Assembly: GCA_964629815.1 (NCBI GenBank)
Contig: CAZVTA010000001.1
Coordinates: 189,226-253,225 of the forward strand
Direction of reading: 5' to 3'
DNA length: 64,000 nt
From: an uncultured Candidatus Saccharibacteria bacterium
GTDB lineage: Bacteria; Patescibacteriota; Saccharimonadia; Saccharimonadales; AWTP1-31
In this document: one piece after another, positions 10,146-37,342 of the stretch
Layout of the letters: every line of letters begins with the position of its first letter
Position numbering within the stretch: position 1 is the first letter of the stretch
Position numbers and translations under genes: made by a program
The notes under the pieces: model-generated
Database searches by the model: none
Told to the model about the DNA's origin: nothing
Seen by the model: the letters and a program-made list of their open reading frames with translations, nothing else

Positions 10146-10187
10146 TATTCTACCTTTCCCCACCCAACTTGGATCGAAAAAGGAGCG

Positions 10188-17254: not shown

Positions 17255-17950
17255 TTACAAGGCTGGTTTGTACGATTTTAGGGTTTTTCGGAATTGTTTT
17301 GCACCCGGATATACTGTTTCGAACAACCCCCAGAAGTCTGCTCCATGGTGCAAATGCTTGGTGTGTGTGAGCTCATGGAGAATGACATAATCGATAAGTT
17401 CCCACGGTAGCTGCATAAGGTATAGATTAAGCGTGATTTCTTGCTTGTTATTACAGCTTCCCCAACGGGCCTTTAGCGTGCGGATAGCGACAGAGGTATA
17501 CGAGAATCCATGCGTCTGTGCAAGACGCTCAACTCGCATAGGGAGAAGTTTTTCGGCTTCTGCGCGCAAAGATTTTAAAGCGTGTTGTTTGGCTGCTTTT
17601 TGTACTGCTGGGTCGTCAAACGACATATGCGATGGTACGACCACGCGAATTTGGCTTCCAATGGTTTTAGTTTGCACTGTTTTTGCTTGGTCGCTTGCCG
17701 CGAAATATATGTGGTGCGCCTTACCAATAGCAGATCCGTTTTGTAATATCGATTGCTCGGTTCGGTGCTGCAAAATCCAGTCTCGCTTGCTTTCGGTGTA
17801 AGCAATGCCAGTGGCGTAAGGAGTCCACCAAGGAATTGTCACGCGTATCTCGCCATTGGGCAATAGCGCAATGCGTACACTGCGGGCCCGGCGGTGCTTG
17901 CGAATAGTCACCGAACCAATGTCGGGCAGCTGAACGACCTTGTCGGCCAT
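17255..17950 (-). CDS. YgjP-like (DUF45/M48 family) zinc metallopeptidase
   Basis: 231 aa with HExxH motif ILHELTHTKHLHH near the C-terminus and the typical YgjP layout. Confidence 0.8.
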   Translation of the reverse strand: MADKVVQLPDIGSVTIRKHRRARSVRIALLPNGEIRVTIPWWTPYATGIAYTESKRDWILQHRTEQSILQNGSAIGKAHHIYFAASDQAKTVQTKTIGSQIRVVVPSHMSFDDPAVQKAAKQHALKSLRAEAEKLLPMRVERLAQTHGFSYTSVAIRTLKARWGSCNNKQEITLNLYLMQLPWELIDYVILHELTHTKHLHHGADFWGLFETVYPGAKQFRKTLKSYKPAL

Positions 17951-18609
17951 TATCGAATAACTATATTTCGACGTTGATCGTCTATGCGGCCAGAGAATGG
18001 GTTCGGTACAAGGTTTACGAGCTCTGGCTTTACGACGTTGCTTGCAGTCGTAGTGGTGTTAATGGCGCCCAGCTCGTACAGTCGTTTTATAACAGCACTC
18101 TTCTGCGTATTAAAGGTATGCTTACCGCTAATTACCATGTAATCTTCTTCTTTAGGGTTCTGCATGCGTGCCATTGCCGCCTTGAAAGACTCTTTGGTGT
18201 ACACCTTGGCGTATTTGTCTTCGGCCCGGCGCCGGTCACGTTTGCCGAGTCGTATATAAGCAGATTCTGCATCTATCTGGAGCCAAATAAGCAGCGGTTG
18301 TGCCTTTGCTTTGCGGGCAATGTTTCGTAGTTCGCGGCGTTCTACCAGCCTATCGACGGGCGCATCGTAAATAACGCTGACGCCAGCGCTCAAAAATTCT
18401 TCGCTCATATAGCTAAGCAAATGGTCGACAATTCCGTTTTCTTCTTTGTCGTAACGAGGTTTTTCAAAAAGTTCGCCGCGGATCCGATCACTGCTGAGGT
18501 GAGCGGCGTGAAGCGTATGACTCAGTTCGCGTGCAAAGTGTGACTTGCCTGCGCCCGGGTAGCCGTACAGCATGATAAAGAGTGGTTTGTTTGGAGTTAC
18601 TTTACCCAT
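17950..18609 (-). CDS. P-loop kinase/ATPase (AAA_33 / zeta-toxin-like fold)
   Basis: 219 aa with Walker A LYGYPGAGKSHFA. Its stop overlaps the start of the metallopeptidase gene by 1 nt. Confidence 0.7.
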   Translation of the reverse strand: MGKVTPNKPLFIMLYGYPGAGKSHFARELSHTLHAAHLSSDRIRGELFEKPRYDKEENGIVDHLLSYMSEEFLSAGVSVIYDAPVDRLVERRELRNIARKAKAQPLLIWLQIDAESAYIRLGKRDRRRAEDKYAKVYTKESFKAAMARMQNPKEEDYMVISGKHTFNTQKSAVIKRLYELGAINTTTTASNVVKPELVNLVPNPFSGRIDDQRRNIVIR

Positions 18610-19032: not shown

Positions 19033-19560
19033 ATGAAGAAGCTCAAAATCCCCGCAGACATTCCAAAAAATAAAATGCAACTCGCCAAAGAGATGCATCG
19101 TCTACACGAGAGCTGCCTATATAGCAGCCAAGGTCAGTTTGAGTTAGGAAAGCAGTGGCGATTGAATAATATTTTGCTGGGAGTACCGGCATCTATATTG
19201 GCCGCATTAGCAGGTAGTGTGGGCCTTGCTCAAGATGATAAGACGCTGCTTCCTCCGATATTAGCACTACTATCTGCTGGATTTGGGGCGGCACTAACAA
19301 CTTTAAATCCATCTAGGCGAAGTGAATTGGCGCAAATCGCAGGAAACAGTTATTTAGAGATACAAACAGCAGCAAGACAGTACATACTGGTTGACCTGAA
19401 AGATATGGATAATACCAAGGCAAGACAAAAACTAGACGAACTAACTACTAAGCGAAATAAAATCAACAAAACTGCAGACCCACCTAACAGGCTTGCTAGG
19501 TTTATGGCAAAACGCATTATTGACGGTGGCGGACAGGACTACTCAATTGACGAAAAATAA
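19033..19560 (+). CDS. SLATT-like two-transmembrane effector protein (175 aa)
   Basis: Helical N-terminal region, two adjacent hydrophobic helices (ILLGVPASILAALAGSVGLA, LLPPILALLSAGFGAALTTL), then a helical C-terminal region. Translationally coupled (TAATG) to the downstream nucleotidyltransferase. Family call is by architecture and context only. Confidence 0.6.
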   Translation: MKKLKIPADIPKNKMQLAKEMHRLHESCLYSSQGQFELGKQWRLNNILLGVPASILAALAGSVGLAQDDKTLLPPILALLSAGFGAALTTLNPSRRSELAQIAGNSYLEIQTAARQYILVDLKDMDNTKARQKLDELTTKRNKINKTADPPNRLARFMAKRIIDGGGQDYSIDEK

Positions 19561-20432
19561 TGGCTACAACTGTTGCACAAGCATTTAATGAGTTTAAAGA
19601 TAAGATTAAACTGACAAGTTCTCAAGAAGAAACGGTTAGAAATCGCCGCCAAACTGCTCATAATTATCTTGCTAGTCATTTTGACAGCACATCAACAATG
19701 CCGCTTTTACGTACTACACTTATCGGTTCCGCTCAGCGAGACACAATAATTCGTCCGTTAGACGATATAGATATACTTGCCGTATTTGAGAATAAAGAAC
19801 ATATATTTGAAACATACCGGAATGATTCCTTTGCTTTCATTAACAGGGTGAGGAACGCCCTCAACCAGTATGAAGTACAGCTTGTAGGTACTAGAGGTCA
19901 GGCTGTCAGGCTTTTTTACCAAAATCGTCCACACGTAGATATTGCACCCGTTTTTAAATGGTCAACGGGTGGATACGGGTTGCCTGATGGCAGTGGTGGC
20001 TGGATAACAACTGACCCCGATTTTCACCTTCAATGGATAAATACAAAAAACCAAGAATTGAATTACCGCTTAAACCCAATTATTAGAATGATTAAGCGAT
20101 GGAATAATACTTACGAGACAAAACTTAAGTCATTTCACTTAGAAATGATGGTAGCCAATACATTTACGAGTTTGGGTAACGATAGCCGAGAGGCACTCGA
20201 AATGTTTTTTGATTCCGCTCCATCACTAATGCGAACGATTGACCCTTCTGGTAGAGGTGGAGATTTATCTGTATACCTCACGGCGACCAACAGACAGTTA
20301 ATTACTAATAGATTTAACAGGTATAAGAATAAGTGTGCGGAAGCAAACCGTCTTGAAATCAACGGCAACCACCGAGACTCAATTGAAAAGTGGCGAGAAA
20401 TATTCGGGAATGATTTTCCGACTTACGGCTAA
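19560..20432 (+). CDS. SMODS/CD-NTase-like nucleotidyltransferase (290 aa)
   Basis: Pol-beta NTase signature: G56-S57 (LIGSAQRDT), D69-I-D71 (PLDDIDILAVF) and a third acidic residue D127 (HVDIAPVF). The N-terminal helix AQAFNEFKDKIKLT is typical of SMODS-type proteins. Confidence 0.7.
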   Translation: MATTVAQAFNEFKDKIKLTSSQEETVRNRRQTAHNYLASHFDSTSTMPLLRTTLIGSAQRDTIIRPLDDIDILAVFENKEHIFETYRNDSFAFINRVRNALNQYEVQLVGTRGQAVRLFYQNRPHVDIAPVFKWSTGGYGLPDGSGGWITTDPDFHLQWINTKNQELNYRLNPIIRMIKRWNNTYETKLKSFHLEMMVANTFTSLGNDSREALEMFFDSAPSLMRTIDPSGRGGDLSVYLTATNRQLITNRFNRYKNKCAEANRLEINGNHRDSIEKWREIFGNDFPTYG

Positions 20433-20743: not shown

Positions 20744-20772
20744 TTGACAATTCTAGTTAAAGCTTGTACGAT
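20744..20772 (+). promoter_or_regulatory. Sigma70-like promoter TTGACA-N17-TACGAT
   Basis: Motif reading; ATG of the mini-ORF lies 6 nt downstream. Confidence 0.45.
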
Positions 20773-20778
20773 TCGTGT

Positions 20779-20823
20779 ATGAGTATGTTTTGCTTGCATA
20801 TAGTACCGCCCACGCCTCGTTGA
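20779..20823 (+). promoter_or_regulatory. Candidate leaderless leader peptide MSMFCLHIVPPTPR (Pro codons CCG CCC .. CCT)
   Basis: Own reading. Followed by GGGGC (possible antiterminator partner of the GCCCC in the terminator 5' arm), terminator 20875-20899, then the SD GAAGGA and ATG 20922 of the glutamate-5-kinase-like gene. Confidence 0.35.
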
Positions 20824-20874
20824 CCCGGGGGCTATGATAGTGCAAAAAAATAACGAATAATACGAAACAACAGA

Positions 20875-20899
20875 ACGGCCCCACGGGTCGTATTTTTTT
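20875..20899 (+). terminator. Rho-independent terminator
   Basis: ACGGCCC-CAC-GGGTCGT followed by ATTTTTTTCTGTTTG. An A-rich 5' flank (CGAAACAACAGAA) can extend the stem. Confidence 0.75.
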
Positions 20900-20921
20900 C
20901 TGTTTGTTTCGAAGGAATAGC

Positions 20922-21797
20922 ATGGAGAAAAAAGAATTAACAATTATAAAAGTAGGCACCGGTGTAATTGCTAATCGGCAAAGAACAGCGATTGATTATA
21001 CTGCCATGGCATCGATTGGGCGCGATATTGCACGTATAGAAGGCCGCGAGCGTAAAGACGAAAAAGTTTCTACATTGGACCATGAAGGTTCGGTAATTTT
21101 GGTTAGCTCTGGTGCGGTTGCTGCCGGAAAAGAAAAACTTGGCATGAACGGTTCTGATGTTTGTAATACGCGCCAAAAGCAAATGGCAGCCATGGTTGGA
21201 AATACGGCACTTTTTGGGTTGTGGGAGGCTGCAACCGGTATAGTTGTAGGCCACGACTTGCCCACTCATAATGATCTTGAGCTGCAAGAGCATTGGGACA
21301 ATATGGTTGGTGTTATTGCAACTAACTTAGAGTACGGCGTTTTGTCTGGTTTTAATGAAGGCGATGTACGCAGTACTGAAGAGCTCGAAACAAACGTGCG
21401 TGCCGCCGGCCGGCAATTTAAACGTTTCGGTGACAATGACCAGCTAGCCGCCATTATTGGCGTGCAGATTGGTGCGTTTGCAAAAAGTTTTGTAGGTCAG
21501 TCAACGCGCGTAATATTTCTGACCAATACAAATGGAGTGCTCGAAGATGTGCGGAGGCCCGATTCTCGTATAGATGAGCTACGATACAAAGATATCGATG
21601 AAATTATTGAGCAATGCTTGCACGACGAAACAGCAGATATTAGTAATGGCGGTATGCTGTCTAAATTGCTTGCTGCAAAGCAGCTGGTTGGTGCCGGCGT
21701 GTCGGTAAGTATAGGCGCGGGAAAAAATGCTTCTGGTCGCCCTTTGCTCGATTTGTATAATCGGGTAGAACATGTGGGCACACACATACTTGCATAG
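20922..21797 (+). CDS. proB: Glutamate 5-kinase-like amino-acid kinase (no PUA domain)
   Basis: IIKVGTGVI, VILVSSGAVAAGKEKLG, KQMAAMVGN..LFGLWE, FGDNDQLAA, LTNTNGV and SNGGMLSKLLAAK align with ProB motifs. ATG 20922 has SD GAAGGA. Confidence 0.7.
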   Translation: MEKKELTIIKVGTGVIANRQRTAIDYTAMASIGRDIARIEGRERKDEKVSTLDHEGSVILVSSGAVAAGKEKLGMNGSDVCNTRQKQMAAMVGNTALFGLWEAATGIVVGHDLPTHNDLELQEHWDNMVGVIATNLEYGVLSGFNEGDVRSTEELETNVRAAGRQFKRFGDNDQLAAIIGVQIGAFAKSFVGQSTRVIFLTNTNGVLEDVRRPDSRIDELRYKDIDEIIEQCLHDETADISNGGMLSKLLAAKQLVGAGVSVSIGAGKNASGRPLLDLYNRVEHVGTHILA

Positions 21798-29311: not shown

Positions 29312-30169
29312 TTAGAGCGCTAACATAACCGAAGTGGCTACGAGCTTGCTGTTTGTCCCCTGCTCTAACTGTTGGATACTGCGTAGTACGAGCTTCTGTT
29401 TTTGCAGCCATTGCGTTACCTTCTGGTCATTTTGTTGTTTGGCAGCATGTATCATGGCGGCATTAATGACACGCAGTAAAGCAGCAAGAAGAGACTGTAG
29501 CGCTTCTTTGTTTTTGGATAATTCTTCAACACGTAGCATTTTCTCAAAGGAGCTTTTGCTTAATAATAGCTTCGCCTCGTTAATGGTTTGCAGCGATGTG
29601 TCATCTGGGTTATCGAGCAGAGTCTGTAATAAACGAGGTGCGCCTTCGCTCATAAAAAATGCTTTCTCTATTGCCGCCTGTTCGTGGGTGCTTGCAAAGG
29701 TTTGCACGGCTTGTTCCAGCGAAAGCGGTGTTGATTGTATTGTTTGCACACGCGACAAAATCGTAGGTAATAACTGTCTCGGGTTGCCTGTACAGAGCAC
29801 AAAGATAGTGTCTGCAGGTGGCTCCTCGAGCATTTTAAGGAGTGCGTTCTGGGCTTCGGTGCTAATAGTTTCTGCTTCGTTTATGAGAATGGCTCTTCTC
29901 AATGCACTTGTGCCTGGAACTACAAGTTTTATAAATTGCTGGATTTCGCGAACCGCTTCGATGCCGATAGAGCTGGGGGTGGGGTTAATCAGAAGAATGT
30001 ACGGATGCGATGCGGTATTGGCTACGCCAAGCAGCGAAGCAATAATGTAATGTGCTATATCTGCTTTGTGAGTGTAGGCTTGTCCACTAATCACTAACCC
30101 GTGTGCAGGGCTTGCCAAGAATCGATCGACTTGCTGCATTGTATCTTGAGAAAGCAATGGTTTATTCAT
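29312..30169 (-). CDS. holB: DNA polymerase III subunit delta'
   Basis: AAA+ clamp-loader-like: LINEAETISTEAQNALLKMLEEPP, ILSRVQ. ATG 30169 overlaps the rluD stop (ATGAATAA) and is preferred over the longer track ORF. Confidence 0.8.
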   Translation of the reverse strand: MNKPLLSQDTMQQVDRFLASPAHGLVISGQAYTHKADIAHYIIASLLGVANTASHPYILLINPTPSSIGIEAVREIQQFIKLVVPGTSALRRAILINEAETISTEAQNALLKMLEEPPADTIFVLCTGNPRQLLPTILSRVQTIQSTPLSLEQAVQTFASTHEQAAIEKAFFMSEGAPRLLQTLLDNPDDTSLQTINEAKLLLSKSSFEKMLRVEELSKNKEALQSLLAALLRVINAAMIHAAKQQNDQKVTQWLQKQKLVLRSIQQLEQGTNSKLVATSVMLAL

Positions 30170-31019
30170 GCTGAAATATTTCCTCGAACGCTGGTGGTAC
30201 AGGAGAAGTAAAGACCTTGTGTTGTTTATTAGGGAGTGTGATATCAAGTTTATGGGCGTGCAAGTAGGTTCGTTTAGCAGGTTTGCCACCGTAGAGTTCA
30301 TCGCCTAAAATTGGGCAACCCATGTAGGCCATATGTACGCGGAGTTGGTGTGTGCGACCAGTCTCTGGACGTAATTCAATAAGGCTGAGTTCTGGTGTGG
30401 TCTTTAATGTATGATACTGCGTTTTTGCAGGTTTGCCGTTTACGCCGACCCGGAATGTTTGTGGTTTCTTAGGATTGCGTTCGATAGGCATGTCGATAAT
30501 TGCTTCGCTTGGGTTTGGCGACCCTTGAACGACTGCAACGTATGTTTTTTTGGCCTTTCGTTCACTAAACTGTTTTTGCAGCCATGACATTGCCGTCGGT
30601 GTTTTGGCACAGATAATTACCCCAGATGTAACGCGGTCGAGTCGGTGTACAATGCCGCCGCGGTCAGTGTCGAGGTCTTGGGTGTGAGGTCGAATAAAGG
30701 TCGATACTGTAGCTTCTGGGTTAAAGGCACCCTTGCTGTGCGTCAAGACACCGGCCGGTTTATCGATAACTAAACAATCATTGTCTTCGTACAAAATAGG
30801 TAGGCTGACTTCTGGTATTTCATTGGTAGAAACAGGCTCGTAATTTATATGAATGCTATCCGTCTGCGATACTTTAGTAGAAGGTTTAAATACTGTTGTG
30901 CCGTCGATGGAGACTTTGCCCTGGTCGAGAAGCACGCTCGCAAATGAGCGACTTACGCCAAGTTCTTTAGCAATGCAGGCATCGATACGGCCGCTAGCTG
31001 ATGGAATGATTGTTTGCAT
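30162..31019 (-). CDS. rluD: RluA-family pseudouridine synthase (RluD-like, S4 domain)
   Basis: 285 aa; catalytic motif HRLDRVTSGVI and C-terminal GRTHQLRVH. Confidence 0.9.
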   Translation of the reverse strand: MQTIIPSASGRIDACIAKELGVSRSFASVLLDQGKVSIDGTTVFKPSTKVSQTDSIHINYEPVSTNEIPEVSLPILYEDNDCLVIDKPAGVLTHSKGAFNPEATVSTFIRPHTQDLDTDRGGIVHRLDRVTSGVIICAKTPTAMSWLQKQFSERKAKKTYVAVVQGSPNPSEAIIDMPIERNPKKPQTFRVGVNGKPAKTQYHTLKTTPELSLIELRPETGRTHQLRVHMAYMGCPILGDELYGGKPAKRTYLHAHKLDITLPNKQHKVFTSPVPPAFEEIFQHE

Positions 31020-31024
31020 GGTGC

Positions 31025-31309
31025 TTACGCCGTTGGCTCTGCCTCGTCACCAACAATTACAATAACTTTAACCGCTGTTTCGCCAATTCTGCCAAAACAT
31101 TCTTGCGGTGCAAGCTCTGTGCGTGCAAGACGATCTGGTTTTGCGGTTATAGTAACTTCAAGTGGTCCGTTATCAAACTTGAGTGTTACAGGATGTACTA
31201 TTGGCGGTAGTAATTGTCTTCTTGGATGTACGGCCCTACTAGTGCCTCTTACCCAGATTGTTTCGCCGCTTGTTGCAGGGGCCTCCATTCCAAGATCTTC
31301 GTGACTCAT
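31025..31309 (-). CDS. Hypothetical protein (94 aa)
   Basis: ORF-track ORF whose start overlaps the trpS stop by 4 nt (ATGA). A plus-strand ORF of similar size overlaps it, so the strand choice rests on operon context. Confidence 0.45.
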   Translation of the reverse strand: MSHEDLGMEAPATSGETIWVRGTSRAVHPRRQLLPPIVHPVTLKFDNGPLEVTITAKPDRLARTELAPQECFGRIGETAVKVIVIVGDEAEPTA

Positions 31310-32328
31310 CGGAGGCCCACAGCTTTCTGTACCGCAAGAAGTGTTTGTTGTGCGACTTCGTTCATAGCACGTTCGGATGACTCTAATTTGCTCGTGAGGA
31401 CATTGTCGTCGACATCTGCAAGACGCTTCTGAAACGAATCCAAAAAGGCGGCAACTGCATCTGCAACGTCGGTTTTGAGTAGACCATATTGAGATTGGCC
31501 TGCATATACTGCCGCAACTTCATTGACAGGACGATCCGAGAGCGCTGCGAGTATATCAAGCAGGTTGCTAATACCAGGTTGTGTATCGTAGTCGTAGTTA
31601 ATGCTCGCAAGGCTATCTGTGGTGGCAGACATGACCTTTTTACGCGCTGCCTCTGGTGTATCGCCCAGGAATATAACACCCTTGCCTGATTCGTCTGATT
31701 TGCTCATTTTTTTGTCGGGTTTTTGTAGGTCACGAATACGTAGGCGCTGAGCGGTTTTTGCGAACGCAATTTGTTCTTTTTCTGCTTCGGGTGGAGTGAA
31801 TATCTCACCAAACTTATTGTTCATGCGTAGTGCAATATCGCGCGCAAGCTCTACATGCTGTGTTTGGTCTGCCCCAACGGGCACATACTTCGCGCCATAT
31901 AGCAAAATGTCTGCAGCCATAAGAACCGGGTAGTCGAATAAACCGACGCTGACATTCTGTTGCCCTTCGCCTTTCTCTTTAAACTGCGTCATTCGACTCA
32001 GTTCGCCCATGTAAGCAAAACAATTCAAGATAACAGTGAGTTCACTGTGGGCGGGTATACGGCTTTGTCGATACAGATACGTATGTGAATTGTCGAGATC
32101 TAACCCAGCAGCAATAAACAGACGCAAGTTGTGCATGGTTTGCTTGTAGAGCGTACTGTGGTCGATAGGGGTTGTGAAGCTGTGTAGGTCTGGGACGAAT
32201 AAGTTGATTTGATAGTCACCTGCCATTTCTTGTTGCATTTTGACAATAGGAAGCAGTGCACCCAGGTAGTTACCAAGGTGAAGATCGTTATTGGCGCGAA
32301 GGCCTGTGAGTATTACCGGTGTATTCAT
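31306..32328 (-). CDS. trpS: Tryptophan--tRNA ligase
   Basis: 340 aa; class I motifs HLGNYLGA (HIGH-like) and KMSKS. Confidence 0.95.
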   Translation of the reverse strand: MNTPVILTGLRANNDLHLGNYLGALLPIVKMQQEMAGDYQINLFVPDLHSFTTPIDHSTLYKQTMHNLRLFIAAGLDLDNSHTYLYRQSRIPAHSELTVILNCFAYMGELSRMTQFKEKGEGQQNVSVGLFDYPVLMAADILLYGAKYVPVGADQTQHVELARDIALRMNNKFGEIFTPPEAEKEQIAFAKTAQRLRIRDLQKPDKKMSKSDESGKGVIFLGDTPEAARKKVMSATTDSLASINYDYDTQPGISNLLDILAALSDRPVNEVAAVYAGQSQYGLLKTDVADAVAAFLDSFQKRLADVDDNVLTSKLESSERAMNEVAQQTLLAVQKAVGLR

Positions 32329-32390
32329 ATTATCTCCATTATAGTATATCTGTTGTATATGTCAGTATTTCTGATACGAGTGTGGCATTT

Positions 32391-33515
32391 TTACAATGCT
32401 TTCACAAAAAGTTCGATGCTGCTTCGTAAGACCGGAACCGAATCATGCGTCAGCAGAAAATTTGGATCGGTTCTGCCGGTGTTTACGCCAATTTCGGCAA
32501 TCATGCCGCGTAAGCAGTGTGCATCGGCTATGCGACCTATGTTTATGGCGCCAGTGATTTCATCGAGCACGTTAATGACTCTGTTGTGACCCTTTCGAGG
32601 GATATCAAGCATTGGCGGTACGCCATGGGTTGCGTCGAGCAGCACTGCGCTTCCAAGCGACTCACCAAGCAGACACATGCGCGAAAGGTGTAATAACGCA
32701 GCATTACGGCGTTGTTCTGCGCTGAGTCCTTCTGGAAGCTCGTGTCCACGCGCAATAAACGCTATCGATTGGTTGCCCTGTTCGACCGGTACAAGTGGCG
32801 TTGCGATACCCGGATGTATCGCGGTTCGGCCCAGATTACCAATAAACACTCCTGAATTGTCATTTATATTACTGTTCCCTCGGATAGTTTCGTGAGCCTG
32901 CATGAGTAGATCTTCGTCATTACCACGAGTACTATTCTTGAGGCCTACTGGCAAATGGTATGCGCTCATGGTATCGCGTCGCTCAGTTGGTTCTATATCG
33001 CGTGCGCCAATCCATACTGCGCTGAGCCATGGTGCGAGTGCAGCTAGTTGCTCGGTTTCGGTTATTTCAGTAACGACGGGAATATGTCTGTTAAATGCTT
33101 GCTGTACCGCCCAAAAAACACTTTGTCGCTCGGTCGGGTCGAGGCTATTAAATGCTCCTCTCCAACCAGTGCTCGTGCGTGGTTTTGCTCCATTTGCCCG
33201 AAAGGCAATTAAGCAGTCGGGGTTTTGCTGTTGTAGTTCGGCAATAAATTCGAAGAGCGGGCCGTAGTCAACGCCTCGGTCGAGCGAACACGGGCCTATG
33301 ATGACAAGTTTTTTGCCCGATTCAGTTCTGAATATTTTGCCGATTTCTTCTCGGTAGATATCCCGAGATAATGTCGCGTCTGCTGCAAGTTTGTCGCTCA
33401 GTGCACGTAAGTGGTCTTGTCCACGGATGTCGTGTGCCAAAAACATGTCGAGTGCAATCGCTGCTCCGTTGTCGAGTGCCCAATGATGTTTTAATATGTC
33501 TTCTATATTTTCCAT
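32391..33515 (-). CDS. Class I DAHP synthase-like protein (3-deoxy-7-phosphoheptulonate synthase family)
   Basis: VIIGPCSLD, AKPRTSTGWRGAFNS, WIGARD and LPVGLKNS align with AroG-type motifs (VIGPCS, EKPRTTVGWKG, IGAR, PVGFKN). Confidence 0.7.
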   Translation of the reverse strand: MENIEDILKHHWALDNGAAIALDMFLAHDIRGQDHLRALSDKLAADATLSRDIYREEIGKIFRTESGKKLVIIGPCSLDRGVDYGPLFEFIAELQQQNPDCLIAFRANGAKPRTSTGWRGAFNSLDPTERQSVFWAVQQAFNRHIPVVTEITETEQLAALAPWLSAVWIGARDIEPTERRDTMSAYHLPVGLKNSTRGNDEDLLMQAHETIRGNSNINDNSGVFIGNLGRTAIHPGIATPLVPVEQGNQSIAFIARGHELPEGLSAEQRRNAALLHLSRMCLLGESLGSAVLLDATHGVPPMLDIPRKGHNRVINVLDEITGAINIGRIADAHCLRGMIAEIGVNTGRTDPNFLLTHDSVPVLRSSIELFVKAL

Positions 33516-33533
33516 ACTGTTTTCCTTTGTATT

Positions 33534-33561
33534 AAAAAAGCCCGCTGTCGTGGCGGGCTTT
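33534..33561 (-). terminator. Rho-independent terminator about 20 nt upstream of the DAHP-synthase-like start
   Basis: Minus strand AAAGCCCGC-CACGACA-GCGGGCTTTTTT, followed by AATACAAAGGAAAACAGTATG. Confidence 0.75.
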
Positions 33562-33583
33562 AGAGAATGTATTTATTGCATTA

Positions 33584-33652
33584 CTAATAAAACCGCCAAC
33601 GTCGTGAGTTCACGTAATACCATGTTGAAGCTGTTGAATTTTGTATTTGCAT
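33584..33652 (-). promoter_or_regulatory. Candidate leader peptide P2 MQIQNSTASTWYYVNSRRWRFY (aromatic-rich)
   Basis: Own reading; 6 of 22 residues are W/Y/F, with W19-R20-F21 as in P1. The stop lies 22 nt before terminator 33534-33561. Confidence 0.35.
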
Positions 33653-33680
33653 AGTCTGTTTCCGTGTGAGTGTTATGTTG

Positions 33681-33965
33681 CTAATATGCGAGATACGTCC
33701 GAGTTTCGCGTCGGACTGGCCTTACTGGGTCTGGACCGAGATCTGCGGGGTTTTGTGATGTTGTGTCTGTTTCCAGTGCGGCACATAGTTTTAACGATAG
33801 TTGCCCGCATGCATGCGTGCAGCGTGATGCATCTGTATCTGAAGGGCAGCCTTCTATATAGACGGCTTTAAGTCTGTTATAGACACCGAGCCTGTTGGTT
33901 TGTGGGTTTATGCGCTCGATTGCACCGTTGACTGCACCATATCCATTTTGGTCGAGTTGAATCAT
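33681..33965 (-). CDS. Hypothetical small Cys-containing protein (94 aa)
   Basis: ATG 33965 with a strong SD (AAGGAAATAATCATG). The longer track ORF reads through terminator 33997-34026 and is rejected. Contains CPSDTDASRCTHACGQLSLKLC. Confidence 0.45.
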   Translation of the reverse strand: MIQLDQNGYGAVNGAIERINPQTNRLGVYNRLKAVYIEGCPSDTDASRCTHACGQLSLKLCAALETDTTSQNPADLGPDPVRPVRRETRTYLAY

Positions 33966-33996
33966 GATTATTTCCTTGTTTCGTGTTATTGCTGAT

Positions 33997-34026
33997 ATAA
34001 AAAAACCGCCGTTACTGGGCGGTTTG
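33997..34026 (-). terminator. Rho-independent terminator
   Basis: Minus strand AAACCGCC-CAGTAAC-GGCGGTTTTTTTT. Confidence 0.8.
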
Positions 34027-34045
34027 TTATTCGTTAATTGGTGTT

Positions 34046-34126
34046 TTATTGATATGAATAAGCAAAGCGCCACGTATATGACGGTGTAAACCAAACTGAA
34101 TAAAATTGCTGTATTAAACTCTTCAT
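34046..34126 (-). promoter_or_regulatory. Candidate leaderless leader peptide P1 MKSLIQQFYSVWFTPSYTWRFAYSYQ (aromatic-rich)
   Basis: Own reading; 9 of 26 residues are W/Y/F. -35 TTGACA at 34164-34159, -10 TAGAGT at 34141-34136, and the ATG 9 nt downstream. The stop lies 19 nt before terminator 33997-34026. Confidence 0.35.
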
Positions 34127-34163
34127 AACACCACTACTCTATACAATATAGTACTGTTTGTCA

Positions 34164-34191
34164 AACAAAAAACCGCCCCGAAGGGCGGTTT
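34164..34191 (-). terminator. Rho-independent terminator after the 78-aa ORF
   Basis: Minus strand AAACCGCCC-TTCG-GGGCGGTTTTTTG. Confidence 0.85.
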
Positions 34192-34209
34192 AGATGAAGC
34201 TATATAAAC

Positions 34210-34446
34210 TTACTTTTCGAAGTCATTGATTGACACGGTTGATGTATCAATCGCTCCCTCTATTTGTACACTAATTCGAGGAATCAGTAGAGATCTGGTT
34301 TCGCGCCCGGTATCTTCGTCTATAAGCGTATGTAGTATACCTACAGTTAGAGCTTGTCTTTTCACCAATGGGGCATTCATATTACCTCCAACCCTGTAGT
34401 ATGATTCTCCTGGTGTCCCAGGTTCAAGTTCTGGTGTTAGTCTCAT
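34210..34446 (-). CDS. Hypothetical protein (78 aa)
   Basis: ORF-track ORF starting 10 nt after the rpsI stop. No family recognised. Confidence 0.45.
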   Translation of the reverse strand: MRLTPELEPGTPGESYYRVGGNMNAPLVKRQALTVGILHTLIDEDTGRETRSLLIPRISVQIEGAIDTSTVSINDFEK

Positions 34447-34456
34447 CGAACAATCC

Positions 34457-34858
34457 CTAACGCTTGGTGAACTGGCGTTGTTTTCGAGCGCCTTTTAGAC
34501 CAAACTTCTTGCGTTCTTTCTCGCGAGGATCACGACCCAGTAGGTCAGCACGTTTAAGGGTGCTTTTAAGATCTTCGTTCATGACTGACAGGGCTTTGGC
34601 GATGCCGAGCTTGATTGCATCGGCTTGGCCATTATGTCCGCCGCCAGAAACAACAACAGAAACGTCATATTTACCATTTTGCTCGATAACTGTGAATGGT
34701 TTTTCGAGTTCATTGAGTAGATATTTGCTGTTTTCGAAGTAGTCTGCAGCAGGTTTGTCGTTGATGACAACATTGCCCTTGCCTGTTGATAGACGGATCC
34801 GTGCAGTAGCACTTTTACGTCGACCGAGAGCATAGAAGTAGCTTTTAGCAGTAGCCAT
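34457..34858 (-). CDS. rpsI: 30S ribosomal protein uS9
   Basis: 133 aa; GGGHNGQADAIKLGIAKAL and a C-terminal ...KKFGLKGARKQRQFTKR. Confidence 0.96.
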   Translation of the reverse strand: MATAKSYFYALGRRKSATARIRLSTGKGNVVINDKPAADYFENSKYLLNELEKPFTVIEQNGKYDVSVVVSGGGHNGQADAIKLGIAKALSVMNEDLKSTLKRADLLGRDPREKERKKFGLKGARKQRQFTKR

Positions 34859-35301
34859 TATTTAGCCTCCTTCTTTAGTGAATATAGAGCTGGACTTTGT
34901 GCATGATGATTGTGATCTTCACCAGCGTATACCTTGAGCCTATCGAGGCGACCATCGCGTAGTTTGTTTACGGGTAGCATACCGCGAATAGCTTTGGTTA
35001 ATACAACGGTTGAATCGTCGGCCATCTGATCTTTAAGTGTCTTTTCCTTCAGGCCGCCTGGATGGTGTGAGTGGCGGTAATAGATTTTGCCTGTTTCTTT
35101 GTTGCCGGTTGCCACAAGTTTGTCGGTATTGATGATTACTACGTAGTCACCGCAATCGACATGACTTGTTACCATTGGCTTGCCTTTGCCGATAAGCAGG
35201 CTTGCTGCAACGGTTGCTACGCGTCCGATAGGTGCTTGACTGGCATCAAGTACGTACCAGCTGCGAGTGACGTCGCCTGGTTTTGCGCTAAATGTCTTCA
35301 T
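34858..35301 (-). CDS. rplM: 50S ribosomal protein uL13
   Basis: 147 aa; WYVLDASQAPIGRVA..., YYRHSHHPGGLK. Confidence 0.96.
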   Translation of the reverse strand: MKTFSAKPGDVTRSWYVLDASQAPIGRVATVAASLLIGKGKPMVTSHVDCGDYVVIINTDKLVATGNKETGKIYYRHSHHPGGLKEKTLKDQMADDSTVVLTKAIRGMLPVNKLRDGRLDRLKVYAGEDHNHHAQSPALYSLKKEAK

Positions 35302-35759
35302 TATTTGTCTTCCTTTGCTTCAGCTTTGGCTGTCTTCTTTGCAGGTGCCACTGTTTTCTTTTCAACAGGTGTAGCTGCTTTTGCAACAGGAGCTTCTGTA
35401 AGATTATCTACAAAACTTACGCGTGCCATTTCGGCGTTATCGCCGCGTCGGAGACCGAGGCGTTCGATGCGCAAATGACCACTTGCTCGTCCAGATAGTT
35501 TTGGTGCGATTTCATCGACGAGTTTATGTGCACTTTCGATGGTGCTCAAGCTGGCGATAATTTGGCGTCGGTTATGCAAGTCGCCCTTTTTGGCTTTTGT
35601 GATGAGTTTTTCGACATAAGGAACAACTTCCTTAGCTTTCTGAATGGTCGTTTTGATCGATTCGTCGCGAATAAGCGATTCAGCAAGACCCTTGATAAGG
35701 GCATTGCGTTGATCACGCTCGCGTCCGAATTTACGACCTTGATATCCGTGACGATGCAT
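35301..35759 (-). CDS. rplQ: 50S ribosomal protein bL17 with Ala/Lys-rich C-terminal tail
   Basis: 152 aa; MHRHGYQGRKFGRERDQRNAL is a typical L17 N-terminus. Confidence 0.95.
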   Translation of the reverse strand: MHRHGYQGRKFGRERDQRNALIKGLAESLIRDESIKTTIQKAKEVVPYVEKLITKAKKGDLHNRRQIIASLSTIESAHKLVDEIAPKLSGRASGHLRIERLGLRRGDNAEMARVSFVDNLTEAPVAKAATPVEKKTVAPAKKTAKAEAKEDK

Positions 35760-35761
35760 GG

Positions 35762-36703
35762 TTAGAGCTCCATCTCCGCCATTTTATCCTTAACTTCGTC
35801 GAGTGCTTTGCTACCAAAGCCTTTTAGATCACGAAGCTCAGAATCGCTGAGGCTAAACAAGTCTTTAAGTGTATGAATGTCGTTGTTAATCAATGCGTTC
35901 GTTGTGCGGGCAGAAAGATTCAAATCTTCGATGCTCGTGTTGAGTTCGTTTGAGTCTTCGCTATCGTCACCACCTGTGTCACCGGTATCTGCAGTTACAG
36001 GAGCGGCTGCTTCAACGCGAGTTTGTCCTGCAAGCGCAGTGTATTGGTTAACCAAAATTGCTGCAGCTTCTTCAAACGCATCACGTGGTGTAATGCTACC
36101 GTCAGTGTCGACAGTGATAAGTAGCTTATCAAGGTCGGTAATTTGACCAACACGAGTGTTTTCTACTTTATAGCGAACACGCATTACAGGGCTAAACACT
36201 GCGTCGAGTGCAATCATGTCGCTGTGCTTGCGGCTTGCTGACTCTTCAACCGTGTGGTAACCACGACCAGTTTCCACGACTAGGTCCATGACGAACTTTG
36301 TTTTGTCGTCGTCAACGGTTGCAATTACGTGCTCTGGGTTTACTACTTCAACATCTGCGTTAACAGTGATATCTTTAGCAGTAATTACGCCCTTGCCTGA
36401 TTTAGTAATTCGTAGCGTGTGGTTGTCGCCGTTAAATACACGGAAACGGATACCTTTGAGGTTAAGCATGATATCTACGACATCTTCTTTGACGCCCTTG
36501 ATGGTAGTGAATTCGTGTGTTGCACCTTCAACTTTGAAGGCGGTTATTGCGGCACCAGCAATGCTCGAGAGTAGTACTCTGCGGAGTGAGTTCCCGAGTG
36601 TCATGCCATAGCCTGTGTGTAGTGGCTCGATAGTAAATGTTGCAGATGTTTTACCGTGGTCATCAACCTTTACGAGCCCTGGTGTGTGAATAATTTTTGA
36701 CAT
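35762..36703 (-). CDS. rpoA: DNA-directed RNA polymerase subunit alpha
   Basis: 313 aa; an N-terminal domain (EPLHTGYGMTLGNSLRRVLLSS) and a C-terminal HhH domain (LNLSARTTNALINNDIHTLKDL). Confidence 0.96.
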   Translation of the reverse strand: MSKIIHTPGLVKVDDHGKTSATFTIEPLHTGYGMTLGNSLRRVLLSSIAGAAITAFKVEGATHEFTTIKGVKEDVVDIMLNLKGIRFRVFNGDNHTLRITKSGKGVITAKDITVNADVEVVNPEHVIATVDDDKTKFVMDLVVETGRGYHTVEESASRKHSDMIALDAVFSPVMRVRYKVENTRVGQITDLDKLLITVDTDGSITPRDAFEEAAAILVNQYTALAGQTRVEAAAPVTADTGDTGGDDSEDSNELNTSIEDLNLSARTTNALINNDIHTLKDLFSLSDSELRDLKGFGSKALDEVKDKMAEMEL

Positions 36704-36718
36704 ATTCGTTCGCCTCCC

Positions 36719-37342
36719 TTAGCGTGAGTAGTATTCTACGATTAGTTGCTCATTGATTTCTGGCTCTGCATCTTCTCGGGTTGGAAGACCAGTGACAGAT
36801 ATTTCAAATTTCTTACGATTAACTTTTAGCCAGCCAGGGATCTGGTCGTTTGCTGCTGGGCTAACATCATCGATACGTTTGAAGTATTCGTTATTTTTGC
36901 TCGCATCGCGAAGGACAATAGCATCTCCCTGACGAACACGAATAGATGGAATATCAACACGGCGACCATTAAGTACAAAATGACCATGTGTTACCAGCTG
37001 ACGCGCTGCGCGCCGGCTCACTGCAAGACCGCTTCGGTATATAACATTGTCGAGGCGTAGCTCTAGGTACTGCAACAGGTTTTCACCAGATTGGCCTTCT
37101 TTACGCTCTGCCTCGCTCATGAGACGCGCGAACTGCTTCTCTAGTAGTCCGTATAGTCGTTTTACTTTTTGCTTTTCGCGAAGCTGCAAACTATATTGGC
37201 TTGGTTTGCTGCGCATACCGCGACCATTTGCAGATGCACCAGGCATGCTGGTTCGCTTCATGAGAGCTTTGTGAGCTTTTGGATGAAGTGCGTAGCCTTC
37301 GCGACGACTCATCTTAACAATTGATTGTGTATCTCGTGCCAT
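36719..37342 (-). CDS. rpsD: 30S ribosomal protein uS4
   Basis: 207 aa; YSLQLREKQKVKRLYG and the S4 domain RLDNVIYRSGLAVSRRAARQLV. Confidence 0.96.
   Translation of the reverse strand: MARDTQSIVKMSRREGYALHPKAHKALMKRTSMPGASANGRGMRSKPSQYSLQLREKQKVKRLYGLLEKQFARLMSEAERKEGQSGENLLQYLELRLDNVIYRSGLAVSRRAARQLVTHGHFVLNGRRVDIPSIRVRQGDAIVLRDASKNNEYFKRIDDVSPAANDQIPGWLKVNRKKFEISVTGLPTREDAEPEINEQLIVEYYSR

Follow-up and report, generated by a model that had tools for sequence, protein, structure and literature searches.

In a 64,000-nt stretch of DNA (hereafter the window) from an uncultured Candidatus Saccharibacteria bacterium (assembly GCA_964629815.1, contig CAZVTA010000001.1, positions 189,226-253,225 of the forward strand), two short leader ORFs, P1 and P2, each followed by an intrinsic terminator, are predicted to form two classical ribosome-mediated transcription attenuators in series, a reading to which we assign a probability of roughly 0.85. 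Judging from the sequence, the attenuators most likely tune a DAHP-synthase-like (DAHPS-like) gene and, via read-through, the Trp-tRNA ligase gene trpS to the supply of aromatic amino acids. The computed support consists of sequence anatomy, conservation, co-variation between a GGCG segment and the terminator, spacing and an in-silico switch, and from these we infer that ribosomes stall, that transcripts terminate in vivo, that initiation is leaderless and that the P1/P2 system responds to amino-acid supply. The principle of attenuation is already known, and what is new is its instance in Saccharibacteria/CPR; our literature search returned no earlier report of leader-peptide attenuation in this group, just as the original prediction knew of none from CPR-type bacteria. 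To our knowledge, there are hardly any descriptions of cis-regulatory RNA from CPR/Patescibacteria. The features are given below in window positions, all on the minus strand:

34136..34164, minus strand: promoter of the attenuated unit, TTGACA-17-TAGAGT, 10 of 12 consensus matches
34046..34126, minus strand: leader ORF P1, MKSLIQQFYSVWFTPSYTWRFAYSYQ, 26 codons and stop
34088..34105, minus strand: codons 8-13 of P1 (F Y S V W F), the proposed sensor, at a distance of 19 nt from GGCG
34055..34077, minus strand: P1 region 2, 5' strand of putative antiterminator 1, GGCG core at 34068-34071
34012..34033, minus strand: 3' strand of putative antiterminator 1, overlapping the 5' arm and loop of terminator 1
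33998..34025, minus strand: intrinsic terminator 1, AAACCGCC-CAGTAAC-GGCGGTTT and T-run (8-bp stem, 7-nt loop, 7 T; -11.0 kcal/mol)
ATG at 33965, minus strand: SD-ATG of the 94-aa ORF, AAGGAAATAATCATG
33681..33965, minus strand: 94-aa ORF with four conserved Cys, first gene behind attenuator 1
33584..33652, minus strand: leader ORF P2, MQIQNSTASTWYYVNSRRWRFY, 22 codons and stop
33614..33622, minus strand: codons 11-13 of P2 (W Y Y), the proposed sensor, with the P1 distance of 19 nt to GGCG
33578..33602, minus strand: P2 region 2, 5' strand of putative antiterminator 2, GGCG core at 33594-33597
33534..33561, minus strand: intrinsic terminator 2, AAAGCCCGC-CACGACA-GCGGGCTTT and T-run (9-bp stem, 7-nt loop; -14.2 kcal/mol)
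ATG at 33515, minus strand: SD-ATG of the DAHPS-like gene, AAAGGAAAACAGTATG
32391..33515, minus strand: DAHPS-like gene, 374 aa, the main regulated gene
32338..32365, minus strand: promoter-like element in the interval separating the DAHPS-like gene from trpS, CTGACA-16-TATAAT, 11 of 12 matches
31306..32328, minus strand: trpS, Trp-tRNA ligase (TIGR00233, 290.6 bits)

The anatomy of the original prediction was recovered throughout, i.e., the promoter, P1 (34126..34046), P2 (33652..33584), both terminators and, immediately behind each terminator, an SD and ATG. Its central claim, that aromatic leader peptides with a terminator/antiterminator switch precede the DAHPS-like gene and trpS, agrees with conservation, co-variation and ribosome-masked folding alike. 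In the proposed mechanism, transcription would start at the TTGACA/TAGAGT promoter and the 5'-terminal ATG of P1 would be translated, probably in a leaderless manner. A shortage of charged tRNA-Phe, -Tyr or -Trp would stall the ribosome at P1 codons 8-13 (F-Y-S-V-W-F), with its footprint ending shortly before the GGCG segment some 19 nt further on; the free GGCG segment would pair with the newly transcribed 5' arm and loop of the terminator to form the antiterminator, and RNA polymerase would continue into the 94-aa Cys ORF. With an ample supply of aromatic aminoacyl-tRNAs, the ribosome would cover GGCG, the terminator hairpin and its U-tract would form, and the transcript would end. Transcripts that read through would face a second device at P2, composed of the W-Y-Y cluster, GGCG and terminator 2, ahead of the DAHPS-like gene, and with two attenuators in series DAHPS expression would thus require two successive antitermination events. 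Transcripts passing the DAHPS-like gene would run on into trpS, which would also have a basal promoter of its own.

The -35 (TTGACA) and -10 (TAGAGT) hexamers that had been proposed upstream of P1 are present, and the ATG of P1 lies 9 nt downstream of the end of the -10 hexamer and has no SD. The same layout was found in 15 relatives, in which TTGACA and a spacer of 16-18 nt are followed by a -10 element ending 6-10 nt before a leader ATG without SD (L017 and L021 were read again by eye). Since the short distance and the lack of an SD are shared in this way, the P1 mRNA is probably leaderless. Orthologues of P1 with 26 codons occur in L001, L002, L003 and L005, and one with 35 codons in L024; among relatives the synonymous codons differ (TTT/TTC, TAT/TAC) while the encoded amino acids are kept. 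P2, on the other side of the 94-aa ORF, has an SD-like GGAAA upstream and no promoter of its own, and its positional counterpart is the second leader of L024, MRMRKKIEQNKLNFWYYAYSVKWRYCI. P2 is the weakest of the family, its cluster holding only three aromatic codons and its score in the covariance model being marginal.

Conservation of the attenuator extends across divergent Saccharibacteria (DAHPS 40-52% identical), in which 18 aligned examples and 3 extra copies were found. At 15 other loci, the orthologous DAHPS-like gene is preceded by the unit of promoter, ATG without SD, aromatic cluster, GGCG, terminator and SD-ATG; a lack of mini-ORF conservation in relatives, which the original prediction had named as grounds for rejecting it, was thus not what we observed. 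Throughout the family, GGCG follows the aromatic cluster by about 18 nt and an intrinsic terminator lies about 46 nt further on, and the metagenome contig L024 repeats the complete order seen in the window, namely leader, small Cys ORF, leader, DAHPS and trpS. Leader peptides vary from 14 to 35 aa in length and are not conserved in sequence beyond the aromatic cluster. A covariance model built without the window sequences scored P1 highest (59.5 bits, E~1e-10) of all matches in the 64-kb window and P2 second, at full length and with a marginal score (19.8 bits, E~0.04). When the window and all fetched loci were scanned on both strands (~200 kb) for aromatic mini-ORFs with a terminator behind them, the matches were confined to these leaders and two additional copies of the attenuator. 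The near-identical strain contigs L025 and L026 showed no micro-variation, being 100% identical across the region; the identical contigs stem from runs SRR16481184 and SRR16481182. An Rfam scan of positions 30000-37000 (E<=10) gave no match to a T-box or riboswitch, and matches to Trp_leader (RF00513; 28.0 bits for P2 and 18.5 for P1, gathering score 41) and Phe_leader (RF01859; 23.9 bits for P1 and 23.7 for P2, gathering score 55) lay below the gathering thresholds and rest largely on the terminators. Membership in these enterobacterial families was rejected, though the mode of action would be like theirs.

At least four F/W/Y codons in six were found in 16/18 homologous leaders, as compared to only 8 of the 382 ATG ORFs of 14-40 codons in the window (2.1%). 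Together with the varying synonymous codons, this contrast points to selection on the codons. P1 is among those eight ORFs, and P2, reaching just three F/W/Y in six codons, falls in the top 12%. The window by itself is only suggestive, and it is the comparison with relatives that settles the matter beyond chance. Other aromatic-rich mini-ORFs of the window (54577+, 25946-, 48082-, 4225+ and 12888+) were dismissed as chance occurrences, as they lie inside or antisense to genes and have no promoter/terminator context. The proposed sensor is the F/Y/W cluster, i.e., codons 8-13 of P1 and 11-13 of P2, and across the family it takes such forms as FYFWF, YWF, WFFF, YFFF, YYYFY, FNFFYSF and FGFSYFY. 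Across the leaders, the last codon of the cluster and GGCG are a median of 18.5 nt apart, and the distance remains 19 nt where a leader carries 8 extra N-terminal codons. Trp codons are present in the cluster at 11/11 loci with the trpS-linked layout (trpS was seen downstream in ten of these, the L001 locus ending before it) and at 0/6 loci without trpS. Since the loci lacking Trp codons form roughly one clade, this correlation may reflect a single evolutionary event and was downgraded as independent evidence.

The GGCG segment is invariant in 18/18 leaders, though in two reading frames, and lies at leader nt 56-59, within codons 19-20, in P1 and P2 alike. As GGCG(G/C)U it encodes W-R in 11 leaders and G-G or G-D in 6, and in one it lies past the stop codon; because two reading frames are used and the segment is once located after the stop codon, GGCG is conserved at the level of RNA. 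In accordance with this, the 'W-R-F' that the original prediction had found at codons 19-21 of both leaders stands as the site of the pairing segment, an RNA element, and not as a conserved peptide motif. In P1, the predicted duplex between 34055-34077 and 34012-34033 has an energy of -17.1 kcal/mol, a value reached by 0/200 shuffles. The P2 segment would pair with 33548-33570, which includes the 5' arm and loop of terminator 2 and is the 3' strand of antiterminator 2; at -16.9 kcal/mol (1.5% of shuffles equally good), this duplex is comparable to that of P1, contrary to the earlier view that the P2 antiterminator is the weaker one.

The predicted pairing of the GGCG region favors its own terminator. 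Cognate antiterminator duplexes averaged -17.4 kcal/mol, a mean not matched in any of 20,000 permutations (p<5e-5), versus -14.7 kcal/mol for non-cognate ones. In an anchored ungapped alignment, 61.7% of the cells pair, as compared to 36-44% when the partner is slid, and 13 pairs carry double-sided changes, a number reached in 8/500 shuffles. Co-variation extends to the core in L018 (GGGCGAUCU / AGAUCGCCC / GGCGAUU) and in the independent tyrA attenuator of L009 (GGAGGC / GCCUCC). Compensatory changes between the W-R-F region and the terminator 5' arm are what the original prediction had suggested looking for. Compared with unrelated terminator-like hairpins, antiterminator energies differed significantly (Mann-Whitney p=0.001), but the two distributions overlap widely, and since many of the controls are GC-rich intragenic hairpins, this comparison is of limited value.

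An intrinsic terminator is present in 18/18 leaders, with energies of -8.6 to -15.1 kcal/mol and 20-29 nt past the stop codon, and for terminator 1 an RNAalifold consensus shows compensatory changes in relatives. The switch was analyzed by folding transcripts cut before the terminator 3' arm with the ribosome footprint masked, an approach adopted instead of the minimum free energy (MFE) structure of the complete leader. Under these conditions the terminator 5' arm is sequestered with the A-site anywhere up to the cluster and freed 2-3 codons later, and this switch is clear in about 15/18 leaders, P1 and P2 included. In P1, seven of the eight bases of the 5' arm are sequestered with the A-site at codons 1-15, and 0-5 after the ribosome has passed. 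The masked folding, which the original prediction had proposed as a check, thereby agrees with its view that a ribosome crossing the W-R-F segment masks the antiterminator. With a ribosome on the stop codon, the GGCG core is exposed again in several leaders. In complete-transcript MFE structures, the switch is clear in only about 6/18 leaders, including P1, and elsewhere the terminator always wins; for this reason the attenuation model depends on co-transcriptional kinetics. A 1:2 anti-antiterminator or pause hairpin, which would enforce termination when the leader is not being read, is predicted in 18/18 leaders, where local MFE structures pair GGCG with bases a short way upstream; these hairpins are weak (-2.4 to -12.9 kcal/mol), and they did not differ significantly from those of shuffled sequence.

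If the nascent peptide stalled translation jointly with free aromatic amino acid bound in the ribosome, P1 and P2 would be arrest peptides of the TnaC type, and the free ligand, not tRNA charging, would drive the switch. The leaders are short, with conserved Trp and aromatic residues, the strings 'WFT(P/S)S' and 'W-R' are kept within the P1 clade, and a terminator/antiterminator RNA would suit either type of stall. In contrast, the family as a whole keeps only the aromatic composition of the cluster and no peptide sequence, 'W-R' is an RNA element read in differing frames, and the geometry places the stall at the aromatic codons themselves, as predicted for a sensor of codon supply. Moreover, in the codon-supply scheme an abundance of amino acid gives termination, which is opposite in sign to TnaC, and we consider arrest peptides highly improbable. 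A small chance of the same order is left to a real switch that is set by a trans-acting factor, such as a TRAP- or PyrR-like protein or uncharged tRNA acting in a T-box-like manner, the mini-ORFs being incidental. T-boxes or TRAP control trpS and aromatic genes in Firmicutes, which speaks for such a factor, as does a gene of the Trp_repressor family near the DAHPS-like gene in one relative (L022); T-boxes are discussed in PMC1262725. Within positions 30000-37000, on the other hand, no Rfam family, T-box included, reached threshold; the roughly 125 nt from leader ATG to U-tract are too short for a T-box, and no array of (G/U)AG repeats was seen in the sequence. Nor would an incidental ORF retain aromatic codons clustered in frame, at a constant spacing to GGCG, across 18 divergent sequences whose synonymous codons vary.

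Still less probable, in our estimate, is that P1 and P2 are genes for small peptides with a function of their own (a signal, a toxin or a RiPP precursor) and that the hairpins are ordinary terminators at gene ends. The length of 26 aa and part of the sequence are conserved in the closest clade, and functions in trans are known for leader peptides, e.g., peTrpL in Sinorhizobium (PMC7298713). Against this, leaders of 14-35 aa show no sequence conservation outside the aromatic cluster, no modification, export or immunity genes are adjacent, and a plain gene end would not be expected to give a terminator directly before the SD of a co-oriented gene of the aromatic pathway together with a co-varying upstream mimic of the terminator 3' arm. 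Finally, aromatic-rich short ORFs might stand next to terminators in AT-rich intergenic DNA by chance, and within the window alone P1 is no more than a 2% outlier and P2 a member of the top 12%. Fifteen other loci and three extra copies are conserved, though, the specificity scan of ~200 kb on both strands returned no unrelated matches, and the covariance model gave P1 an E-value of ~1e-10; chance is already refuted by these results.

Read as ribosome-mediated attenuators, P1 and P2 resemble the aroR-aroF system of C. glutamicum, where mixed aromatic codons (Phe-Tyr-Phe) in the aroR leader peptide upstream of a DAHP-synthase gene attenuate aroF (Neshat et al. 2014, described in PMC11802643; first noted in PMC4046766). 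Stalling at the aromatic codons is reported to raise transcription of the operon, and the same is proposed for the system in the window; leaderless translation of a leader peptide has likewise been reported for ilvB of C. glutamicum (reference 42 of PMC4046766). Unlike this actinobacterial system, the one in the window comes from an unrelated phylum, its cluster is longer and includes Trp, two attenuators are arranged in series, trpS is predicted to be co-transcribed and the DAHPS belongs to a divergent clade. Leader ORFs with cognate codons and alternative terminator/antiterminator hairpins are also found at pheST (pheM), pheA (pheL) and trp (trpL) of E. coli, and at pheST the attenuated gene is an aminoacyl-tRNA ligase (PMC11802643). 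The E. coli leaders differ in sensing one amino acid each, as compared to three proposed here, and in using an SD, which P1 lacks; furthermore, a 1:2 pause hairpin is well defined in the trp leader, whereas the hairpin in the window and its relatives is no better than shuffles. Classical attenuators have been predicted upstream of trpS and leuS in Streptomyces (PMC1262725), providing another case of leader-peptide attenuation of a Trp-tRNA ligase gene outside Proteobacteria; they differ in standing at a separate trpS2 and in using Trp codons only, while trpS in the window lies behind a biosynthetic gene and has a putative promoter of its own. With the T-box riboswitches at trpS and aromatic genes of Firmicutes, the proposed device would share the tRNA-charging signal and the output of terminator versus antiterminator, while being far shorter, containing an ORF and lacking a specifier loop and T-box sequence.

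The DAHPS-like protein falls in a divergent clade of type I-alpha DAH7PS that is restricted to Saccharibacteria. It matches Pfam PF00793 (DAHP_synth_1) with 66.7 bits, a profile search against the PDB led to DAH7PS with E=3e-24, and all top Foldseek matches of its structure model (pLDDT 94.9) are type I-alpha DAH7PS (TM 0.67-0.78). Whether catalytic residues are kept had been raised as a check: the metal- and PEP-binding motifs GPCS, KPR, GAR, KN, DxxH and E341 are invariant in the clade, and D350 would be the fourth metal ligand. Scores against NCBIfam equivalogs stay below the cut-offs (best 63.7 bits with a cut-off of 343; TIGR00034, 52.1 versus 173). We predict that the protein is likely to be a DAHP synthase enzymatically. 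The 94-aa ORF had no Pfam or NCBIfam match, and its counterpart is a 95-aa ORF, 37% identical and at the same position in L024. An exhaustive search of 1.8 billion representatives yielded no other credible homologue, a match to a long repeat protein being judged spurious, and a word-index search gave only the identical protein.

No terminator was found in the interval between the DAHPS-like gene and trpS, and read-through into trpS is therefore expected. The CTGACA/TATAAT in this interval is probably a separate basal promoter of trpS, a TATAAT being present 8-12 nt upstream of the trpS ATG in 9/9 loci; with such a conserved element, attenuation would add to a basal level and not be the sole control of trpS.

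The phylum Saccharibacteria is regarded as auxotrophic for amino acids. A coherent regulon that responds to the charging of aromatic tRNAs in environmental Saccharibacteria, embracing the private DAHPS clade, the four-Cys 94-aa protein, tyrA and trpS, is a tentative proposal that we regard as possible but rather doubtful. If true, these Saccharibacteria would synthesize their own aromatic amino acids or, at a minimum, process them, the leaderless leader peptides would entail tight coupling of transcription and translation, and the serial duplicated attenuators would give a steep, multiplicative response. For an ultra-small epibiont lineage, the attenuator itself would imply that transcription is coupled to translation and that tRNA charging is sensed, and it would link an uncharacterized four-Cys protein to an aromatic amino-acid module. 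The mechanism is a textbook one, so that the gain lies in phylogenetic breadth and in the physiology of the lineage and not in a new principle; the conserved signature from promoter to terminator can be used to find more attenuated genes in Saccharibacteria genomes. In relatives, the DAHPS-like gene is found among genes for CM, PDT, PDH, an aminotransferase and tyrS, with tyrA also predicted to be attenuated, which points to DAHPS-like, CM, PDT, PDH, tyrS and trpS as a regulated module in environmental Saccharibacteria. Within the 64-kb window, no other genes of the shikimate pathway were found. An AAA_33 kinase encoded at 17950-18609 gave a marginal, sub-threshold SKI-like match.

When the minus strand of 33000-34600 was read together with the ORF list, all parts of the original prediction were recovered, namely a promoter, two leader ORFs rich in aromatic codons (P1 and P2), two terminators and the SD-ATG sites behind them. 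The unit and the trpS gene that follows comprise:

34164-34136, minus strand: promoter, -35 TTGACA and -10 TAGAGT (10 of 12 consensus positions)
34126-34046, minus strand: P1 leader ORF, peptide MKSLIQQFYSVWFTPSYTWRFAYSYQ (sequence reading and ORF list)
34025-33998, minus strand: terminator 1 (hairpin and T-run), after P1
33965-33681, minus strand: 94-aa ORF with SD-ATG, after terminator 1
33652-33584, minus strand: P2 leader ORF, peptide MQIQNSTASTWYYVNSRRWRFY (sequence reading and ORF list)
33561-33534, minus strand: terminator 2 (hairpin and T-run), after P2
33515-32391, minus strand: DAHPS-like gene (divergent DAHP synthase homologue, 374 aa) with SD-ATG, after terminator 2
32338-32365, minus strand: probable trpS promoter, CTGACA-16-TATAAT (11 of 12 matches)
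32328-31306, minus strand: trpS, next after the DAHPS-like gene, a clear TIGR00233 member

Rfam returned only sub-threshold matches to Trp_leader and Phe_leader at the P1 and P2 sites, and neither a T-box nor a riboswitch. Two further minus-strand ORFs were noted nearby. A 78-aa ORF after rpsI (34170-34446) carries a strong terminator at 34191-34170 (AAACCGCCC-UUCG-GGGCGGUUU), of a AAACCGCC/GGCGGUUU type that the attenuator terminators share; the ORF has no homologue in related loci, and the gene caller gave a 56-aa ORF here in an identical contig. A 94-aa ORF at 31025-31309, overlapping the trpS stop codon by 4 nt, was also called as a gene in identical Logan contigs; neither Pfam nor NCBIfam matches it, and tblastn gave no match to it in the other loci.

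Short aromatic-rich ORFs could arise by chance, and the window taken alone makes a modest case against this. At least four F/W/Y in six consecutive codons occurred in 8 of its 382 ATG ORFs of 14-40 codons (2.1%); P1 belongs to this rare class, of which the seven other ORFs lie in neither promoter nor terminator context, and P2 reaches three in six. We consider the comparison with relatives to be the decisive evidence against chance. The DAHPS-like protein has approximately 26 relatives of at most 52% identity (all eight from the genome collection are Saccharibacteria MAGs, and one database match is labelled Microgenomates), whose loci were gathered by searching collections of genomes and metagenomes and through exact look-ups. 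In 15 of these loci, the leader unit is present within 125-170 nt upstream of the DAHPS-like gene, in the order TTGACA-type promoter, SD-less ATG, aromatic ORF, GGCG, GC-rich hairpin with U-tract, and SD-ATG. The leader ORFs have 14-35 codons and an aromatic cluster (FYFWF, YFYFWF, FYGYWF, WFFF, YWFF, YWF, YFFF, FGFSYFY, YYYFY, FNFFYSF and others). One related locus, L024 (DAHPS 41% identical), shows the same double layout as the window: leader 1 (…YYFWFTPSFAWRY…), terminator, a 95-aa ORF 37% identical to the 94-aa ORF between P1 and P2, leader 2 (…FWYYAYSVKWRY…), terminator, DAHPS and trpS. In a covariance model trained on non-window sequences only, P1 was the top match in the 64-kb window (59.5 bits, E~1e-10) and P2 the second-best (19.8 bits, E~0.04, full length). 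When both strands of the window and all loci were scanned blind for an aromatic mini-ORF with a terminator behind it, only the known leaders and two extra copies came up; a third, in the related locus L003, was spotted by eye.

In the relatives' loci, the leader ATG lacks an SD and lies 6-10 nt past the -10 hexamer, and the mRNAs of P1-type leaders, P1 included, appear to be leaderless. P2 and leader 2 of L024 are without a promoter and carry an SD-like GGAAA or AAAGAAAG instead.

Across the 18 aligned leaders, P1 and P2 included, the amino acids of the aromatic cluster are kept while the codons vary (TTT/TTC, TAT/TAC), as predicted for a sensor of codon supply. The core of the W-R-F string, GGCG, is invariant in all 18, although 11 leaders translate it as W-R and six as G-G or G-D, and in one it comes only after the stop codon, indicating that it is conserved as an RNA element. 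The original prediction was right on the likeness of the W-R-F codons to the terminator 3' arm and is supported on their pairing with the 5' arm; at the peptide level, W-R-F is no conserved motif.

The GGCG segment mimics the terminator 3' arm, and its complement is found in the 5' arm and part of the loop. In the related locus L001, GUGGCGCUUUGCU matches the reverse complement GUGGCGGUUUGCU at 12 of 13 positions, and in L018 GGGCGAUCU pairs with AGAUCGCCC, where the terminator is altered to GAUCGCC/GGCGAUU. The duplex energy of leader segments with their own terminator region averaged -17.4 kcal/mol, compared to -14.7 with the terminators of other members, a cognate mean not attained in any of 20,000 permutations; for 13 of the 18 leaders, no more than 1.5% of the shuffled versions paired as well. 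With the sequences aligned without gaps and anchored on GGCG/CGCC, 61.7% of cells pair, a share that falls to 36-44% once the partner is slid by 1-3 columns. The compensatory changes that had been looked for were present, as 13 of 18 antiterminator pairs are altered on both sides (as many in 8 of 500 shuffles). For the same region RNAalifold returned the terminator, with C-G to U-A compensation. A control comparison with 73 other terminator-like hairpins was significant (p=0.001), though with overlap between the distributions.

The last cluster codon begins a median of 18.5 nt upstream of GGCG, and 19 nt in P1, P2 and most close relatives, as well as in leader 1 of L024 despite its eight extra N-terminal codons. 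Constrained folding bore out the proposed switch for both P1 and P2: when the footprint of a ribosome (A-site -18 to +12) was masked in transcripts ending before the terminator 3' arm, the GGCG segment held the 5' arm at every A-site position as far as the cluster and let it go once the ribosome was 2-3 codons past the cluster, clearly so in approximately 15 of the 18 leaders. The full-transcript MFE of P1 is the antiterminator at A-site codons 1-13 and the terminator from codon 14; most other leaders always have the terminator in the full-length MFE, so the model depends on the RNA folding in the order in which it is transcribed. A local hairpin holding GGCG in the unread leader was predicted everywhere, but is weak and not significant.

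On these sequence comparisons we regard the conserved regulatory element as real, and we put the probability that it is a transcription attenuator at about 85%. We infer that when few tRNA-Phe, -Tyr or -Trp are charged, the ribosome would stall on the cluster, the GGCG segment would pair with the terminator 5' arm and the polymerase would read through, whereas with plentiful charged tRNA the ribosome would cover the GGCG segment and termination would follow. In the window, two such devices would act in series, the first gating the 94-aa ORF and the second DAHPS, so that DAHPS expression would need two read-through events. There is no terminator between the DAHPS-like gene and trpS, but in each of the nine loci examined (the window, L002, L003, L005, L008, L013, L018, L020 and L024) a TATAAT specific to trpS lies 8-12 nt before the trpS ATG. 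The motif points to a basal promoter for trpS alone, almost leaderless, besides read-through from the attenuated unit; attenuation would then add to a basal level, which fits an essential enzyme.

Pfam assigns a DAHP_synth_1 domain (66.7 bits) to the 374-aa protein, which scores far under the NCBIfam equivalog cut-offs. It matches type I-alpha DAH7PS among PDB profiles (E=3e-24), and its model (pLDDT 94.9) has only type I-alpha DAH7PS as top structural matches (TM 0.67-0.78). On the question of catalytic residues, the GPCS, KPR, GAR, KN and DxxH motifs and a Glu residue are invariant in the clade. Its neighbours in relatives are chorismate mutase, prephenate dehydratase, prephenate dehydrogenase, aminotransferase, tyrS and trpS, and a role in aromatic amino-acid metabolism is thus well supported by gene context; no other shikimate genes were found within the window. 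Each of the 11 loci that have the trpS-linked layout carries Trp codons in the cluster (trpS confirmed downstream in 10; the L001 locus ends first), and none of the six without trpS does, a correlation that may reflect a single evolutionary event, since the loci lacking Trp codons form roughly one clade. The 94-aa ORF at 33681-33965, for which no family could be assigned, has the L024 ORF as its single credible homologue, with four conserved Cys (CPSD-x5-C-x3-C-x7-C) and a C-terminal Y-x-A-Y.

The closest analogue is the aroR leader peptide (Phe-Tyr-Phe) upstream of aroF in C. glutamicum (PMC11802643, PMC4046766). Attenuation of aminoacyl-tRNA ligase genes is known for E. coli pheST (PMC11802643) and predicted for Streptomyces trpS (PMC1262725), and C. 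glutamicum ilvB is cited as having a leader peptide without a ribosome-binding site (reference 42 in PMC4046766). Its scores below the gathering thresholds place the window element outside Rfam Trp_leader and Phe_leader, which it would resemble in how it works. The original prediction knew of no such report for CPR-type bacteria, and our full-text search of an incomplete literature library found no paper on leader peptides or attenuation in Saccharibacteria, CPR or Patescibacteria, nor on DAHP synthase in Saccharibacteria. Features particular to this system are the mixed three-amino-acid sensor, the probably leaderless leader ORFs and the recurrent duplication into serial attenuators.

The extra copies precede other genes: in L018 (7385-7545; leader MQTAQTTQYWFTYFMKGDLIRIAA) a 141-aa ORF and trpS, in L003 (5125-5275; leader MMKNTHESKSLYWLRNVFTWRFVKCM) an Asp/Glu-racemase-like gene and trpS, and in L009 (1160-1030, minus strand; leader MVSLIQSIYFDFYFVPLSEACS; same element in L012) a prephenate dehydrogenase gene, the last with a differing core, GGAGGC/GCCUCC. 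A weak covariance-model match (14.3 bits) at 20745-20900 (plus strand) is an attenuator-like unit of different specificity, with TTGACA-17-TACGAT, an SD-less ATG 6 nt later, a leader with three Pro in its last five codons (MSMFCLHIVPPTPR), a GGGGGC segment, a hairpin (ACGGCCC-CAC-GGGUCGU) and a U-tract. The gene downstream (20904-21797) best matches glutamate 5-kinase (proB), sub-threshold at 86.9 bits against a cut-off of 186, and the unit may be a proline attenuator. At 19033-20432 (plus strand), a 290-aa SMODS (second-messenger oligonucleotide synthase) protein follows a 175-aa ORF without Pfam match, and may represent a CBASS-like defence gene in a Saccharibacterium. Finally, a 777-aa ORF at 7830-10163 (minus strand) combines an N-terminal thymidylate kinase domain with ThyX (Thy1) domains, apparently fusing two successive steps in the synthesis of dTTP.
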